From positions 1,024,001 to 1,088,000 of the forward strand of contig OY970320.1 in the NCBI GenBank assembly GCA_963716745.1: DNA of 64,000 bases, written 5' to 3'. Made by a program: the position numbers. Origin of the DNA: an uncultured Gemmatimonadaceae bacterium. GTDB taxonomy: Bacteria > Gemmatimonadota > Gemmatimonadetes > Gemmatimonadales > Gemmatimonadaceae. Shown piece after piece: positions 1 through 64,000 of the stretch (position 1 is its first letter; the number at the start of each line of letters is the position of its first letter).

Positions 1-3000
1 CGGTGAGATCGAGCACCTTGGTGCCGCCCGTCTCAGCTCCACTCTCCTGTTTCGGCTCGGCGATCCGCTCGGTGTCGCCCTTCTTGATCTTCCGGCGGAT
101 GAGCGCGAGCAGGTCGCGGTGGTACGAATCCACGAAGCCCGAAGGATCCCACTCGCCCGCGAGATCATCCACGAGACGTTTGGCGAGCTGCAGGTCCTTG
201 GCCGAGATGGCGGCCCCCTTCTTCCCGGCGGCGGGCAGATCGAGCCCCTTCGTACCGCGCAGCTCGCTCTCGTAGCGCATGATGTTGAGCATGAGCGCGG
301 GCCCGTTCACCACGATCGCGCACAGATGCTGCGTCGTGTGCATCACGATCTGTGCGACCGCGGCGAGCCCTGTGTCGCGGATCGTCTCGCGGAAGAGCAC
401 GTAGGCCTTTTCGCCGCGCTTGCCGGGCACGAGATAGTACGGTGTCTCGAAATACCAGGGCGGGATATCCTGCGCGGGTACGAAGTGTTCGATGTCGATC
501 GTCTGCGTCGCCTTGACGTTCGCTCGCTTGAAATCCGCGTCGCTGAGCACGACGTAGCGATCCTTCTCGTATTCGTGTCCCTTCACAATGTCGTTCCAGG
601 CCACCTCTTTGCCGCTGCGCTTGTTGTAGCGACGGTAGCCCACGGGCGACAGATCGTTCTTGTCGAGCATCGTGAAGGAGAACGCGCGGCGGTCCTCGGC
701 GGGATGGAGTTCCACCGGGACGCTGACGAGTCCGAAGGAGAGCGAGCCACTCCAGAGTGCACGGGCCATGGGTCACCGAATGGTTCGCGGAGATGAAAAA
801 AGGCGCGAGAGACCGGAGTGACCGATCTCATCGCGCCTTCGACTCGCGGCCCGCCTGCGCCGCGCGTCAAGGTGGCCGCCGAAGCGGCCTATTTCGTGCT
901 ACCCCAATATCGGGTGGCCGGTCCGGCCACGCAACCCGATTACTACTTCGTGATGTCGATCGCCGTCGCCTCGTTGTAACTCAGGATCATCTGGTCGCCT
1001 ATCTTTGCGCTGTTGAATGCCGTGACGCCAGGGTTCACTTTGAACGAATAGATCTTCCCGTTCGGATTGGCGAACGCGATGGTGCGGGTCTTCATGTCCA
1101 CGCCCGTGATCTTGCACACCACGTTCACGATCTTCACTTCATTGATGTCCGGCAGCCCGGCCGGTGTCACCGTGATCTTCTCAGGCGGCGCCGCGACCGA
1201 GGCATCGCCGGGGCGCCGCATCCAGAGCACCGTGGACTCCACGAACCTGACCGTCACCGTGTCGCCGACGTTCACCTTGAACTGATTGGTCGCGGCCGCC
1301 GGCAGCGTGAACTCATGCATTTGGCCGTTGGAGCCCTGCACCGTGAGCAGGTGCGCCTGGTAATCGTTGCCTAGCACGATCCCTTTCCAAACCGAGACAT
1401 CGCTCGGCACCTTCGGCTTCTCCTGCGCCACCGCGATCCCACATACCGCGACCAGTAGACCCGCCGCGATCCTGATCAATGCACGCATGGTGTTCACCGT
1501 GTAGTTGTAGTTGAAGGCAACAGCCGACAGCCAACAGCCAGCCGTTAGTCGCGGCTACCCTTCGTACTTGAAGGACACCTTCACCTTCGCCCGGTACGCC
1601 TCCACCTTGCCGTCCTTCATCGTCATGTCGAGCTGAGCGACTTCGGCCACGCGCAGCCCGCGGATCGTCTTCGCAGCGCGCTTCACCGCCGCGGCCGCCG
1701 CCTTCTCCCAGCTCTCGGTGCTCGTGCCAACCAATTCGATGACTTTGTAAACACTTTCCGCCATAAGAACCCCCGTAGTTCGCGTGTTCGAAGTTGCGCA
1801 TGCCGCGGCGCTTCCCGCTTGCCGCATCCCGCGCCGTTCGTCCCGCGTAGTATACGGAAGTCCCGGTATGCGCGCGACCTATTGACTCGCCCCCGCCGCG
1901 GAGCTTGAATATGCGGCGACTCTATTTCCGCTCTCTGAGGACCGACATGGCGCAGGCGCAGCTCCCCGTGATCCACCGCGGGTTCGGCGAAACGATGCGG
2001 ACCGACGCGTGGTGGATCAGGCCGGTGATCATCGTGATCGTGCTCGGCGGCTTCCTCGCCTATGCGAACTGGGCGGCTTGGCAGGGCGATCACTACCAGT
2101 TCGGGAACTACCTTTCGCCGTTCTATTCGCCGCTGCTCTTCGGCAGTTCGTCCTTCTCGTGGTTCGGCGCCCGACCCGCGTGGTTCCCGGCTTGGATCTC
2201 GCCGGCCCTCCTGATCCTCCCCTTTCCGGGTTTGTTTCGGGTCACCTGCTACTACTATAGAGGTGCGTATTACCGGTCCTTCTGGGCGGACCCCCCGGGC
2301 TGCGCCGTTGGCGAGCCCCGGAACACCTATCTGGGGGAGAAGTCATTTCCCCTCATTCTCCAGAACGTCCACCGCTATTTCCTGTATGCGGCGCTCATCT
2401 TCCTGGTGATCCTCGCCACGGATGTGTGGCGCGCACTCTGGTTCGCCGACCCGGCGACGGGCGTAGAGCATTTTGGCGTCGGCGTGGGCACGATCGTGCT
2501 CGCGGTGAACGTCGTCCTGCTCAGCTGTTACACATTCGGCTGTCATTCCCTGCGCCATATCGTTGGCGGTCATCTCGATTCGCTCGCCGGCCGCCCTGTT
2601 CGGCAAACTGCGTACGCCTGCTCGAGCTGCCTCAACCGCAAGCACATGTACTGGGCGTACGCGAGTCTCCTCTCGGTGGGATTCGCGGACATCTATGTCC
2701 GCCTCTGCTCCATGGGCATTTGGACGGACTGGAGGCTCTTCTAGATGGCCGAATTCGAAACACAGGATCACGACGTCCTCGTGATCGGCGCCGGCGGCGC
2801 CGGACTTCGCGCGGCCATCGAGGCCGCCAGCGCCGGCGTGAAAGTCGGCGTCGTCTGCAAATCCCTGCTCGGCAAGGCGCACACGGTGATGGCCGAAGGC
2901 GGCGTGGCGGCCGCGCTGGGCAACGTGGACGACCGCGACAACTGGCGCGTCCATTTCGCCGACACGATGCGCGGCGGACAGTATCTCAACAATTGGCGCA

Positions 3001-63000: not shown

Positions 63001-64000
63001 GCGCGCCGCCGCGCGCGCCGCTCCACCAACAGCAGGAGGATGAGCGTCGCCTGGATGATGATCGCCCCGCCCGCGGCGATCACCGTGAGGCGATGCTCCT
63101 CCCACAACGATGGCGCGCGGTAGCGCACGATCGTATTCGGCGGCAGCCGTGACTCGGGAATATTCCACCGTTTGAGCTCGCGCCAATCGACCATCGGACG
63201 CGGCGCCAGCGGCTCCGCGCGCGCCACCGACTTGGGCGCCGCACCGTGGAGGATCTCGAGTCCCATGTCGGCCGCTGCGTGGCCCATGTCGCTGAACACG
63301 GCCATGGCGCCGCCCACGATGCCGCGTCCCATGTACGGATCGGCATAGGCGTACATCGGCGCGCGGCTCGACGGCTGGAGCAGTTGCAGCGCGCGCGCCG
63401 GCGTGTACGTCGTGCCGGCCGAGTCCGCGAACATGGCGATGAACACGATCGCCGTATGGTCGGGCAGTTGGGCGACGCGCGTGCGCAACTCGGCCATCGT
63501 CAGGCCCGTCAGGTACGTGAACGGATATTCACGTTCGAACGGTGCGGCCTGCTTCCTGAAGTCGGCAAGGAAATGCAGGTCGCGAGGCGACGCGCCGTTC
63601 ACAACGAGGAACCGCTGCGTCTCGGGCTGCAAGCGGAGCACCAACTCGATGGTGCTCGCGGCCGGCCAAATGCTGCGCACCCCGACGATACGCGCATCCG
63701 GCATACTCGCCGGGAGTTCGTCATCCGTGACAGCGATGTACACGATCGGTACGTTCGGGAACAACACACGGCGATTCTTGATGAGGTACAGCAGTGCCGG
63801 TCCGCCGGCAGAGATGATCAGATCGGGCGCCCTGCCGCGGTACCGCGCCTGTAGGTATTCCCGCTCCATGTCGGAGCGCACGGTGCCCGGCAGACGCGAA
63901 ACGTCCAGATATTCGGGCTGGATCTCCAGATGGAACGATGAATCGGTCGCGAACCGCTGGCGGAGCGCCGAGTCCATCGCGACGTTCGCGGGGATCAGGC

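Follow-up and report, generated by a model that had tools for sequence, protein, structure and literature searches.

Dispersed palindromes in a Gemmatimonadaceae genome and their putative relationship to hairpin elements that enclose S23p (PF05635) genes

Described systems of bacterial hairpin repeats

In the REPIN-RAYT system, according to the parts of its description on which we draw (Bertels & Rainey 2011), extragenic hairpin doublets, in which an inverted doublet amounts to one long hairpin, form populations that persist vertically at intergenic sites, and each repeat family has a single protein gene flanked by its own repeats. These traits recur in the palindromes of the uncultured Gemmatimonadaceae bacterium studied here (genome G000; 3,292,296 bp, or 3.29 Mb; rated 89.8% complete), which we analyzed genome-wide and in a window of 64,000 nucleotides (contig OY970320.1, positions 1,024,001 to 1,088,000). 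The two systems differ in that the protein here is a predicted four-helix bundle of ~120 aa instead of a Y1 HUH transposase, in that the arms are tandem heptamers and not REPs of 20–40 nt, and in that there is no short self-palindromic REP arm with a 5′ GTAG or CGTC tag, the orientation of GTAG being reversed.

A second comparison is offered by the intervening sequences (IVSs) of 23S rRNA in Leptospira and Coxiella. In the sections of a published account that concern them (PMC4990558), a PF05635/TIGR02436 ORF is bounded by terminal inverted repeats, which make up a long stem, as it is here, and mobility of the IVSs with an S23p ORF, the ORF serving that mobility, is dated as a proposal to 1993; those sections make no mention of dispersed families or of heptamers. 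Unlike IVSs, the elements described here are intergenic and not in rRNA helices, have arms made of heptamer arrays, and include tens of gene-less relatives for each gene-bearing copy.

Heptamer repeats as such were reported by Rehm et al. 2015, namely GGGAATC in Xanthomonas and GGGGA(C/T)T in Nostoc; in the parts of that paper cited here (PMC4692102), there are 70–75 inverted pairs per genome at a mean of 28 nt from the upstream ORF, with variable unit numbers and positions partly conserved between species, and the repeats are read as G-quadruplex formers with no link made to a protein. Our elements resemble these in that they consist of two convergent arrays of tandem 7-nt units and follow closely on the upstream ORF, but most of our families are probably not G4-prone: G-tracts are confined to the CGGGA-type families (0, 0b and 1), with none in families 2, 4, 6 and 8.

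Integron attC sites are likewise imperfect palindromes with AAC...GTT ends directly behind ORFs and with gene-plus-site indels; they differ from the elements here, which form no array at intI/attI, have genes of mixed orientation between them and fall into many dispersed families. Finally, the Avd protein of DGRs, described in the cited part of one paper as a pentameric nucleic-acid-binding helper (PMC10053308), is a distant homologue of the S23p protein (NF033474, 22 bits, below its cut-off). Unlike a DGR, G000 has neither a reverse transcriptase (no PF00078 match, which rules against a reverse-transcriptase-based mechanism) nor template or variable repeats.

Palindrome families, their positions and their turnover

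An ungapped scan of the whole genome for palindromes (+1/-2, score ≥18, arms ≤160 nt) returned 473 centres (262+211), which merged into 359 non-overlapping palindromes, 343 of them ≥60 nt, that together make up 46,883 bp (1.4% of the genome); a simulated third-order Markov genome of equal length gave 4 centres at ≥18 and 0 at ≥20. BLAST clustering yielded 13 families, with 63, 43, 38, 35, 30, 25, 22, 21, 14, 13, 8, 8 and 8 copies, and density peaked across 0.7–1.1 Mb (16, 31, 37 and 20 per 100 kb, against a genome mean of ~11). The arms are mostly tandem 7-mers, and 229 of the 603 period-7 arrays detected with TRF lie inside palindromes. In family 1, the two arms co-vary, with 76 compensatory and 15 non-complementary double changes where chance would give ~9 compensatory ones, and no consistent strand asymmetry was seen. 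G-U pairs number 126 in the sense and 156 in the antisense reading of the G000 palindromes, and there is therefore no strand bias. A search of the 64-kb window against Rfam at gathering thresholds gave 0 matches. Local gene conversion as a source of family runs was considered and rejected, isolation by distance being weak (rho -0.23 to +0.08); family 1 similarity is 0.87 for near pairs and 0.83 for far pairs.

With genes called by a crude codon-bias caller, 108 of the 359 palindromes (30%) lie between convergent genes, compared with 228 of 1544 spacers >60 nt (15%), and 51 (14%) between divergent genes, compared with 330 of those spacers (21%); over 422 stop-facing ends, the median distance to the stop codon is 10 nt. 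Palindromes occupy the terminator position of ~1 in 10 genes in G000, and the genes between copies run in both orientations, some of them being large, conserved and in conserved synteny. Among 718 end views, AACTAC is enriched 28.7-fold, AACTGC 16-fold and AACGGC 8.7-fold, and AACTRC/AACGGC ends are common to different families.

These results bear out much of the genome-wide survey's note on this DNA, which had counted at least 252 palindromes in at least 10 families, had placed their greatest density at 0.76–1.10 Mb, and had reported an excess between convergent genes, a median of 10 nt behind stops, end motifs common to families and no sense/antisense bias. Its description of the families as unrelated was too strong: families 0, 0b and 1 have a CGGGA core in common, and the proteins of the CGGGA-type families form sister clades (100/96).

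The window contains 18 elements (Table 1), of which 14 were found at score ≥18, 1 more at ≥16, and 3 degenerate ones via alignments only. At orthologous sites in sister species the palindrome is kept and its family is often swapped.

Table 1 Palindromic elements of the window, without strand assignment, and their orthologous sites in sister species
Positions	Element	Features in G000	Orthologous site
7442..7533	Family 2 palindrome	9-nt units ATCATGTNA/ATCCTGTCA; GTGAACTGC in loop	Family 2 also in G002 and G004; G004 one unit shorter
9409..9491	Family 0b palindrome	Each arm CGGGACT x3; core CGCCGCGGGA	G002 identical in type; G004 CGGGATT x6/x5
13009..13139	Family 0b palindrome	Outer heptamers TAACTAC TAACTAC; left end overlaps stop of gene 12437-13018	G002, G004: CGGGAAG units in both arms, outer border and core unchanged
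15303..15436	Family 3 palindrome	From genome scan	Family 15-like element in G002, G004, G005
17703..17853	Degenerate family 3 palindrome	Under scan threshold	
19847..19953	Short family 3 palindrome	Flanking genes convergent	G002 same; G004 family 15-like element, then 8.2-kb insertion
21677..21812	Family 3 palindrome	From genome scan	Family 15-like in G002, G004, G005
24945..25060	Short family 3 palindrome	From genome scan	Family 15-like in G002, G004, G005
26903..26960	Short family 2 palindrome	From genome scan	Family 2 in 4 of 4 genomes; unit numbers and loops vary
27428..27580	Degenerate family 3 palindrome	Upstream gene's TAA inside AATAACTGC border	Family 3 in G002; family 13-like in G004, G005
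30675..30939	Family 5 palindrome	Each arm a 37-nt unit x3	G004 same family; G002, G005 composite or other elements
31339..31396	Family 10 palindrome	GCATCGT heptamers	G002 same family; G004, G005 family 15-like
38619..38898	Family 12 element	Inverted ends long; interior of ~240 nt not palindromic; may be an element of another type	Occupied in 4 of 4 genomes
42387..42614	Family 12 element	On opposite side of 1081-aa BNR/sortilin-like gene from 38619..38898	
44505..44591	Family 6 palindrome	CTAGACG/CTAGACC units; borders AACTGCAG...CTGCAGTT; right border contains TAA stop of gene 44590-46518(-)	G002, G004: family 8 element (GGCTGTC units), borders identical
53646..53753	Family 1 palindrome	Each arm CCGGGAACCGRT x2; 6 nt behind stop of gene 51192-53639	G004 family 1; G002 family 6-like
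56800..56907	Decayed family 1 remnant	Left arm recognizable, right arm lost	Intact family 1 variants in G002, G004
59879..60023	Family 4 palindrome	Heptamers CAGTCNA around a terminator-like inner hairpin; flanking genes convergent	Inner hairpin conserved in G002, G004; outer arms differ

Comparison of the window with G004 and G005 gave six gene-sized indels, with a palindrome at a junction in five of them and at both ends in only two. The survey's statement that every such indel starts and ends in a copy thus fails as worded and stands as an association with junctions, and the coincidence of the elements with joints of gene gain and loss, which it had also proposed, is borne out by cases from both genomes. 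In particular, G005 lacks the kinase gene 15436-17670 together with one of the two copies that flank it (15303-15436 and 17703..17853), and G004 carries its 8.2 kb of additional DNA next to the 19.9k copy. Twice, a palindrome stands at the empty junction of the genome from which a gene block is absent. The window shows only one insertion specific to G002, a member of the GGCCATC family at 46.5k, and a lineage-specific gain is present at 18.87k in G005; neither a target-site duplication nor a clean insertion footprint was seen at element ends or junctions.

The survey had also confined the elements to this genus. This applies to sequence families, since the family 1 pattern, with 89 matches in G000 and 1, 78, 7, 16 and 34 in five same-genus genomes, has 0 in 35 genomes of other genera. 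It does not apply to the kind of element: other genera also hold long palindromes with tandem-repeat arms, built from other units.

S23p genes between the arms of split palindromes

In G000, every one of the seven PF05635 matches is enclosed by a split palindrome, whose two arms are inverted, 37–72 nt long and ~500–600 bp apart, and the seven gene-bearing copies belong one each to families 0, 1, 3, 4, 5, 7 and 8. A split-arm scan of G000 found no called gene except PF05635 inside a single palindrome, and the remaining ~350 copies contain no ORF. That large families each have one copy enclosing its own S23p gene is new relative to the survey's note, whose overall interpretation is supported in part.

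The arrangement extends well beyond G000. Within the genus (G000–G005), flanking arms score ≥24 at 38 of 42 PF05635 loci, and 2 of the other 4 are at contig ends; of 29 other Gemmatimonadales genomes, each represented by its best locus, 20 have arms scoring ≥20 and 26 have arms scoring ≥15, compared with a maximum of 13 for mismatched-flank controls. Of 70 PF05635 loci from many phyla, 49 have arms with scores of ≥16, as against 0 of 70 controls, and 37 of the 39 arms that are periodic have a period of 7 or 14. Among these loci, a Xanthomonas MAG has GGGAAT-type arms around its XCC0516 homologue. (A G-rich arm lies upstream of the gene in 45 of 48 cases; since the two strands of a palindrome have the same sequence, we take this as a trait of the architecture and not as a sign of gene orientation.)

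The encoded protein of ~120 aa matches TIGR02436 at 111 bits and XCC0516 (PDB 2GSC, deposited with 5 chains) at E 6.7e-37; PADLOC assigned it to no family. XCC0516 is described, in the cited section of one account, as a homopentameric toroid (PMC4990558). The S23p protein is a predicted four-helix bundle, a close homologue of pentameric XCC0516 and a distant relative of Avd. A search of the literature outside subscription journals returned no paper that connects PF05635/S23p with inverted heptamer repeats or with palindromes dispersed in a genome.

The clades of the protein tree follow the arm families (family 0, 99/96; family 1, 97/87; family 15, 99/99; family 13, 96/93; family 5, 100/100; family 6-like, 100/98; family 8, 99/96), and among 36 rows no clade mixes arm families. 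G004 has two paralogous S23p loci, both with family 13 arms. Protein identity is correlated with heptamer distance (rho -0.17; no value so extreme in 500 label shuffles). Gene and arms are inherited as one locus, and congruence of the tree and this correlation are therefore possible without binding. Two families are abundant only in genomes that hold the cognate gene: family 15-like arms have 3 matches in G000, which has no cognate gene, and 30, 23 and 91 in G002, G004 and G005, which have it; the GGCCATC family has 68 matches in G002, where its gene is present, and 19, 15 and 3 in the compared genomes. As an independent replicate, in G026, from a different family of the order, a 100-kb sample held two gene-less palindromes whose GTGATGA-type units match the arms of one of its PF05635 genes.

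Other observations run counter to such a pairing. Families 2 (38 copies), 6 (22 copies) and 9–12 have no gene-bearing copy in G000, family 3 has 35 copies although its gene is reduced to a remnant of 57 aa, and G002 (rated 63% complete) has its 78 family 1 arm matches although no family 1 gene was found there. No visibly greater decay was seen in such 'orphan' families, arm identity within copies being 0.89 for family 2, 0.83 for family 3 and 0.84 for family 6, against 0.85–0.86 for families 0 and 1. Among 100-kb samples, one from G027 (13 PF05635 genes) held 1 palindrome and one from G020 (1 gene) held 0; PF05635-free genomes are represented in the palindrome sampling by one genome.

Origin of the palindromes and its implications

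We consider it reasonably probable that the palindromes are gene-less derivatives of hairpin elements that carry S23p genes, with a logic like that of REPIN-RAYT. Full-length members would carry the small four-helix-bundle gene between their arms, and the palindromes would be the gene-less majority; the arm sequence, mostly tandem 7-mers, would define the family, each large family having one copy with its own S23p paralogue. The S23p protein, for which we know of no catalytic activity, probably recognizes the heptamer arrays of its own family. In particular, a ring-shaped protein might bind tandem heptamers with about one repeat per subunit, a mode of ring binding for which the TRAP protein is a precedent. 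Such binding would fix the 7-nt period yet let the sequence drift together with the protein, and it may help to copy or maintain the hairpins. If new copies land in existing hairpins (terminators or older elements), this would explain the 10-nt distance from stops, the common outer AACTRC layer and the turnover in place. Hairpins would be tolerated behind stop codons because they could serve as bidirectional terminators, and recombination between copies, or breakage at them, could yield the gene-sized indels.

We regard as unlikely an account in which terminator-type hairpins of the host evolve in place, through replication slippage, arm-to-arm template switching and ectopic conversion, and in which S23p genes are separate selfish cassettes that prefer hairpin tips, as in 23S rRNA, and play no part in the families. 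Heptamers do change in number and sequence symmetrically at single sites, with CGGGACT x3 in one genome and CGGGATT x6 in another at 9.4k, and likewise CGGGACT and CGGGAAG with unchanged borders at 13.05k, and the terminator-like inner hairpin at 59.9k is conserved. The lack of G-U strand bias and of target-site duplications, the persistence of gene-less families, and the replacement of rRNA tetraloops by IVS elements, as stated in the relevant section of the account cited above (PMC4990558), are also consistent with it. Evolution in place cannot, however, yield 20–60 dispersed copies with the same 40–120-nt arms and a similarity that barely depends on distance. Nor does it account for protein clades that never mix arm families, for same-genome paralogues that retain the same arms, for the two families abundant only alongside a cognate gene, or for a 7-nt period that recurs across phyla beside one gene family.

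That the palindromes are miniature inverted-repeat transposable elements, moved by an ordinary transposase whose gene lies at another place in the genome, is quite improbable. The dispersed families, their common terminal motifs and the lineage-specific gains at 46.5k (G002) and 18.87k (G005) are what it would lead one to expect, but the ends lack target-site duplications, palindromy spans the whole element and not its ends alone, PF05635 is the only gene found between arms, and our transposase search, which covered Y1 (PF01797) only, found none.

The survey had raised the resemblance to attC, and recombination sites of an integron-type cassette system, if a tyrosine recombinase cut them at AAC/GTT, would indeed have such AAC...GTT borders directly behind stop codons and give indels of a gene plus one copy; an integron-integrase-like gene is also present (C1:2775564-2776508). 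This explanation is very improbable and largely refuted: the integrase-like gene lies in three frame pieces with a TGA, no single piece of which reaches the cut-off, no palindrome array adjoins it, genes of both directions and large conserved genes in conserved synteny lie between copies, and no consistent strand asymmetry was seen in family 1 arms. Mobilization of REPINs by a RAYT (Y1 HUH transposase) is scarcely credible, for although the elements are dispersed extragenic hairpin doublets with one protein gene per family inside its own repeats and GTAG/CTAC at their ends, PF01797 has 0 matches in G000 (89.8% complete; of 14 reference genomes, 6 gave a match in a control search), each arm consists of tandem repeats and not of a small self-palindrome, and CTAC stands 5′ and GTAG 3′ of the whole hairpin, opposite to the GTAG orientation in the published REPIN layout.

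More tentatively, derivation of the palindromes from S23p-bearing hairpins might be one instance of a pan-bacterial system of S23p/PF05635 proteins and inverted tandem-heptamer arrays, in which a protein ring would read ~4–5 tandem 7-mers of its cognate family and would propagate or control the long hairpins that contain them. The 23S rRNA intervening sequences, the GGGAATC repeats of Xanthomonas, the cyanobacterial heptamer repeats, the heptamer excess of bacterial genomes and the ~350 palindromes described here would then be the same partnership, whose enzyme logic would, if so, differ from that of any known transposon.

To our knowledge, no function has been assigned to S23p/PF05635 proteins since the 1990s, and we know of no explanation for the excess of 7-nt repeats in bacterial genomes. 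The pairing of protein and repeat offers a common hypothesis, in which a pentameric ring would bind cognate 7-mers, for S23p function, for the Xanthomonas and Nostoc heptamers and for the 7-nt excess. If it drives spread, REPIN-RAYT would be joined by a second system in which a population of hairpins depends on a single-copy gene, here one whose protein has no known nuclease or recombinase fold. The pairing of S23p genes with hairpins is found again in many bacterial phyla and may account for several repeats that have long been known without an explanation. Because they mark gene gain and loss and occupy the terminator position, the elements bear on genome plasticity and on 3′-end formation in Gemmatimonadota.

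S23p genes inside split palindromes

The window lies within one contig of 3,292,296 bp (G+C 66.9%), and the nearest relatives of its succinate dehydrogenase are found in Gemmatimonadaceae/Gemmatimonadales MAGs, at 75–77% identity. An ungapped palindrome scan (+1/−2, score at least 18) of this genome (G000) returned 473 palindrome centres belonging to 359 elements, 343 of which span at least 60 nt, with a total of 46.9 kb; the same scan of a third-order Markov genome returned 4 centres. BLAST clustering gave 13 families with at least 8 copies (63, 43, 38, 35, 30, 25, 22, 21, 14, 13, 8, 8 and 8), confirming the long-palindrome families described in the genome-wide survey's note. 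Eighteen elements lie in the window: 14 score at least 18, one scores at least 16, and three are decayed and recognizable only through alignment with sister genomes. The window has no Rfam match at gathering thresholds.

Two family-1 arms 500 bp apart flank a small ORF that encodes a protein of Pfam PF05635 (23S_rRNA_IVP) and TIGR02436 ('four helix bundle protein'), that is, S23p. The genome has seven PF05635 matches, and every one is enclosed by the arms of a split palindrome of its own, no two of them from the same arm family (1, 0, 8, 4, 5, 7 and 3); six of the frames are open (137–233 aa), and the family-3 frame is a 57-aa remnant. Seven of the nine largest families have one gene-bearing copy each, and none was found in families 2, 6 and 9–12. 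A scan for arms 250–2500 bp apart found no further called gene inside a single palindrome in this genome, its other matches being pairs of complete neighbouring palindromes. Family 9, whose compact copies have the centre GTTGTTAACAAC, includes a pair of arms made of CGGATG-type units, separated by 422 nt in which no gene was called; the pair is possibly a decayed gene-bearing copy.

Within the genus (G000 and its relatives G001–G005), inverted arms scoring at least 24 flank 38 of the 42 PF05635 loci, and two of the other four are at contig ends; these arms come from the palindrome families, among them those (fam15-like, fam13-like, fam6-like and GGCCATC) found at window sites in sister genomes. 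PF05635 is present in 35 of 41 Gemmatimonadales genomes (at most 13 matches), and at the best locus of each of 29 genomes outside the genus the arms, which are tandem 7-mers with units that differ by lineage, score at least 20 in 20 and at least 15 in 26; mismatched controls, with left and right flanks from different loci, reached 13 at most. Beyond the order, we took the best 80 loci retrieved with a 12-protein profile and left out 10 cut by contig ends. Arms scoring at least 16 were found at 49 of these 70 loci versus 0 of 70 controls, in a sample spanning Proteobacteria, Bacteroidota, Clostridia, Acidobacteriota, Planctomycetota, Verrucomicrobiota, Actinomycetota, Patescibacteria and others. 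Of the arms in this set, 39 are periodic, 37 of them with a period of 7 or 14, and the median gene-flanking arm is about 31 nt long (4–5 units). The PF05635 locus of a Xanthomonas MAG has GGGAAT-type arms.

Long gene-less palindromes with tandem-repeat arms are also present in sampled DNA of other genera: 4 in 59 kb of G011, 2 in 100 kb of G026, 4 in 100 kb of G016, 6 in 100 kb of G021 (with AACTGC...GCAGTT ends), 1 in 100 kb of G027, 0 in 100 kb of G020 and 0 in 25 kb of G007. G022, the sole PF05635-free genome sampled, yielded one plain 40-nt hairpin. The gene-less copies of G026 have units that match the arms of one of its PF05635 genes.

Anatomy and genomic context

Elements are built in layers. 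The outer border consists of one to three (T)AACTRC or AACGGC motifs, mirrored by GYAGTT or GCCGTT (AACTAC is enriched 28.7-fold, AACTGC 16-fold and AACGGC 8.7-fold over 718 end views). Inside it are short tandem repeats, followed by an inner stem, both specific to the family; the middle is variable and in some copies resembles a terminator hairpin with runs of A and T. The arm repeats have mostly a period of 7, and palindromes hold 229 of the 603 period-7 TRF arrays of the genome, together with arrays of period 9 (57), 13 (37), 14 (32), 21 (32) and 37 (17). Palindromes with similar ends and unrelated arms occur in G021 and G016, two other genera within the same family, indicating that the border motif is conserved well outside the genus.

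The arms of family 1 co-vary, with 76 compensatory double changes versus 15 non-complementary ones, where the single-change rate predicts about 9 compensatory doubles by chance. The sense strand has no excess of G-U-compatible mismatches (126 versus 156 antisense); the symmetry is therefore not maintained by selection on one RNA strand. The G-rich arm is 5' on either strand in most elements (241 versus 87, with 31 ties). Unlike the other families, family 12 (about 8–10 copies genome-wide, with no Rfam match for those in the window) has a non-palindromic interior of about 240–290 nt and no heptamer arms; it may be a different kind of element, or a small-RNA carrier.

Genes were called with a crude codon-bias caller made for this analysis (3024 genes, 83.5% coding). 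The median distance from stop codon to element is 10 nt (422 stop-facing ends), and 30% of elements are in convergent-gene spacers, a class that makes up 15% of spacers longer than 60 nt. Genes adjoining elements end in TAA in 90 of 293 cases, versus 389 of 3024 for the whole genome; the reason is that the TAACTRC border often contains the stop. Some families form runs (family 4 at 769–781 kb and 2305–2323 kb, family 0 at 812–838 kb, family 1 at 905–951 kb), with 1–3 genes in either orientation between successive copies. Solo family-1 arms and a chimera of families 11 and 1 suggest breakage and rejoining at palindrome centres. The apparent frame splits in three window genes could be long-read assembly frameshift errors, pseudogenes or faults of the gene caller, and may account as well for the completeness of only 89.8% of this one-contig genome.

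Turnover at conserved sites

Three sister genomes are colinear with the window: G002 (93% identity), G004 (90%) and G005 (about 83%, gapped). The alignments are interrupted at palindromes. Palindrome sites are kept across the sister species, and the family at a site is often different. At 44.5k identical AACTGCAG...CTGCAGTT borders enclose both families and contain the neighbouring gene's stop codon; this precise swap within 8-nt borders looks more like templated replacement than landing at a hairpin tip. At 13.05k the heptamer has changed in all units of both arms, and the outer border and inner core are the same.

Palindrome sites and other located features (window positions unless marked C1 or C5, which are contig positions)
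Location	Feature in G000	Sister or other genomes
9.4k	three CGGGACT	three CGGGACT in G002; six/five CGGGATT in G004
13.05k	CGGGACT	CGGGAAG in G002, G004
15.3k, 17.7k, 21.7k, 25.0k	family 3	fam15-like
44.5k	family 6	family 8 in G002, G004
46.5k		GGCCATC-family element, G002 only
53.7k	family 1	family 1 in G004; fam6-like in G002
56.85k	decayed copy	
38619–38898, 42387–42614	family 12, one each side of 1081-aa BNR/sortilin-like gene	
2745–5326, 34756–35658, 51192–56867	succinate dehydrogenase/fumarate reductase subunits, Hcp-domain protein, ECF sigma factor; several duplicated 800–900-aa MacB/FtsX permeases, Ser/Thr kinase with TPR repeats	
21813–24520, 25626–26875, 31258–33049	genes apparently split over two adjacent frames: two MacB/FtsX permeases, acyl-CoA dehydrogenase	
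C1:907917–907955, C1:915440–915475	solo right arms, family 1	unpaired arm matches in G002 at the spacing of the solo and chimeric arms
C1:911980–912130	left half family 11, right half family 1	as above
C1:2203081–2203570	family 9 arm pair	
C1:2775564–2776508	integron-integrase-like gene (TIGR02249)	
C1:2783523–2783594	72-nt A+T-only low-complexity palindrome	
C5:100001–200000		G021 palindromes, AACTGC/AACTGA...GCAGTT
C5:500001–600000		G016 palindromes, AACTGC/AACTGA...GCAGTT

A palindrome lies at a junction in five of the six gene-sized indels between the window and its sisters: two have copies at both ends (a kinase gene missing from G005 and a 0.9-kb additional block in G005), an 8.2-kb insert in G004 adjoins a copy, and in two a palindrome is at the empty junction of the genome without the genes. 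The survey's note had held that the elements act as, or mark, points where genes are gained and lost, and these junctions uphold the marking. It had also pointed to features shared with attC sites and had found the elements only in this genus; we do not take them for attC sites, and the tandem-repeat-armed palindromes of other genera show that the kind of element is not restricted to the genus. The spacing of our pattern matches is consistent with its report of about 1.6 kb missing in G002 between two family-1 copies (921–923 kb).

Known systems and a proposed mechanism

Membership among attC sites is rejected on array structure and gene orientation. The integrase-like gene consists of three frame pieces (184, 80 and 62 bits), contains one in-frame TGA and is followed downstream by many small ORFs on its strand and by the 72-nt A+T-only palindrome; no attC-like array of palindrome families was found beside it. 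REPIN-RAYT systems are nearest in logic to these elements, which do not qualify as members, since no RAYT was found and the arms are not REPs. The gene-less copies match inverted GGGAATC heptamer repeats of Xanthomonas, which have been read as quadruplex formers, with no protein link in the sections seen (PMC4692102).

Gene-bearing copies share at least two of three defining features of 23S-rRNA intervening sequences (IVSs), the third being rRNA location. IVSs of Leptospira, Coxiella and Brucella harbour S23p ORFs and are bounded by inverted repeats forming a stem cleaved by RNase III, and Ralph and McClelland proposed in 1993 a mobility role for the ORF (PMC4990558). The protein profile matches PDB 2GSC (XCC0516 of Xanthomonas campestris; E 6.7e-37; five chains) and 2RLD; XCC0516 is a toroid, a homopentamer of four-helix bundles (PMC4990558). 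Avd of diversity-generating retroelements is said to resemble PF05635 (PMC10053308), and PF05635 genes are placed also within cas loci, with a common motif GxxRxxxSxxxNxxE (PMC3936711) that is present in the proteins here. Neither a reverse transcriptase nor a Y1 transposase was found in G000. A literature search, with most subscription journals outside its coverage, found no paper tying PF05635/S23p to heptamer inverted repeats or dispersed palindrome families.

A maximum-likelihood tree of 36 genus proteins (57-aa remnant excluded) has two deep subfamilies and supported clades that match arm families; the CGGGA-core families (0, 0b, 1 and CGGGAAA) are sisters (support 100/96), and two paralogous loci of G004 both have fam13 arms. 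Protein identity correlates with heptamer similarity across 59 loci of different genomes (rho −0.17; 0 of 500 label shuffles as extreme). Mere co-inheritance of gene and arms is expected to give both results, which therefore demonstrate a lasting unit, not binding. More telling is that family abundance follows the cognate gene: fam15-like arm matches number 3 in G000, without the gene, versus 30 in G002, 23 in G004 and 91 in G005, with it, and the GGCCATC family, whose gene is present in G002 alone, has 68 matches there versus 19, 15 and 3 in the others. Family 1 in G002 is a counter-case, however: it has 78 matches, and no gene was found for it in this assembly (rated 63% complete). The gene-less families 2, 6 and 9–12 of G000 also count against the pattern.

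Our main result is the strong association by which S23p genes are systematically nested in heptamer-armed palindromes. The gene-in-hairpin unit has 7-nt periodic arms and gene-less relatives in tens of copies, which lie behind stops and turn over in place. For the function of the protein and the spread of the hairpins we offer hypotheses. New copies may land at hairpin tips, to which the IVS precedent (a tetraloop replaced by a long stem), the gene at the exact centre, the common outer layer and the chimeric half-elements point. The elements may double as bidirectional terminators. The pentameric ring, for its part, probably binds the heptamer arrays of the family to which its gene belongs, each subunit taking up about one heptamer, as TRAP binds triplet repeats; such binding would account for a period fixed at 7 across phyla and for a sequence that drifts with the protein.
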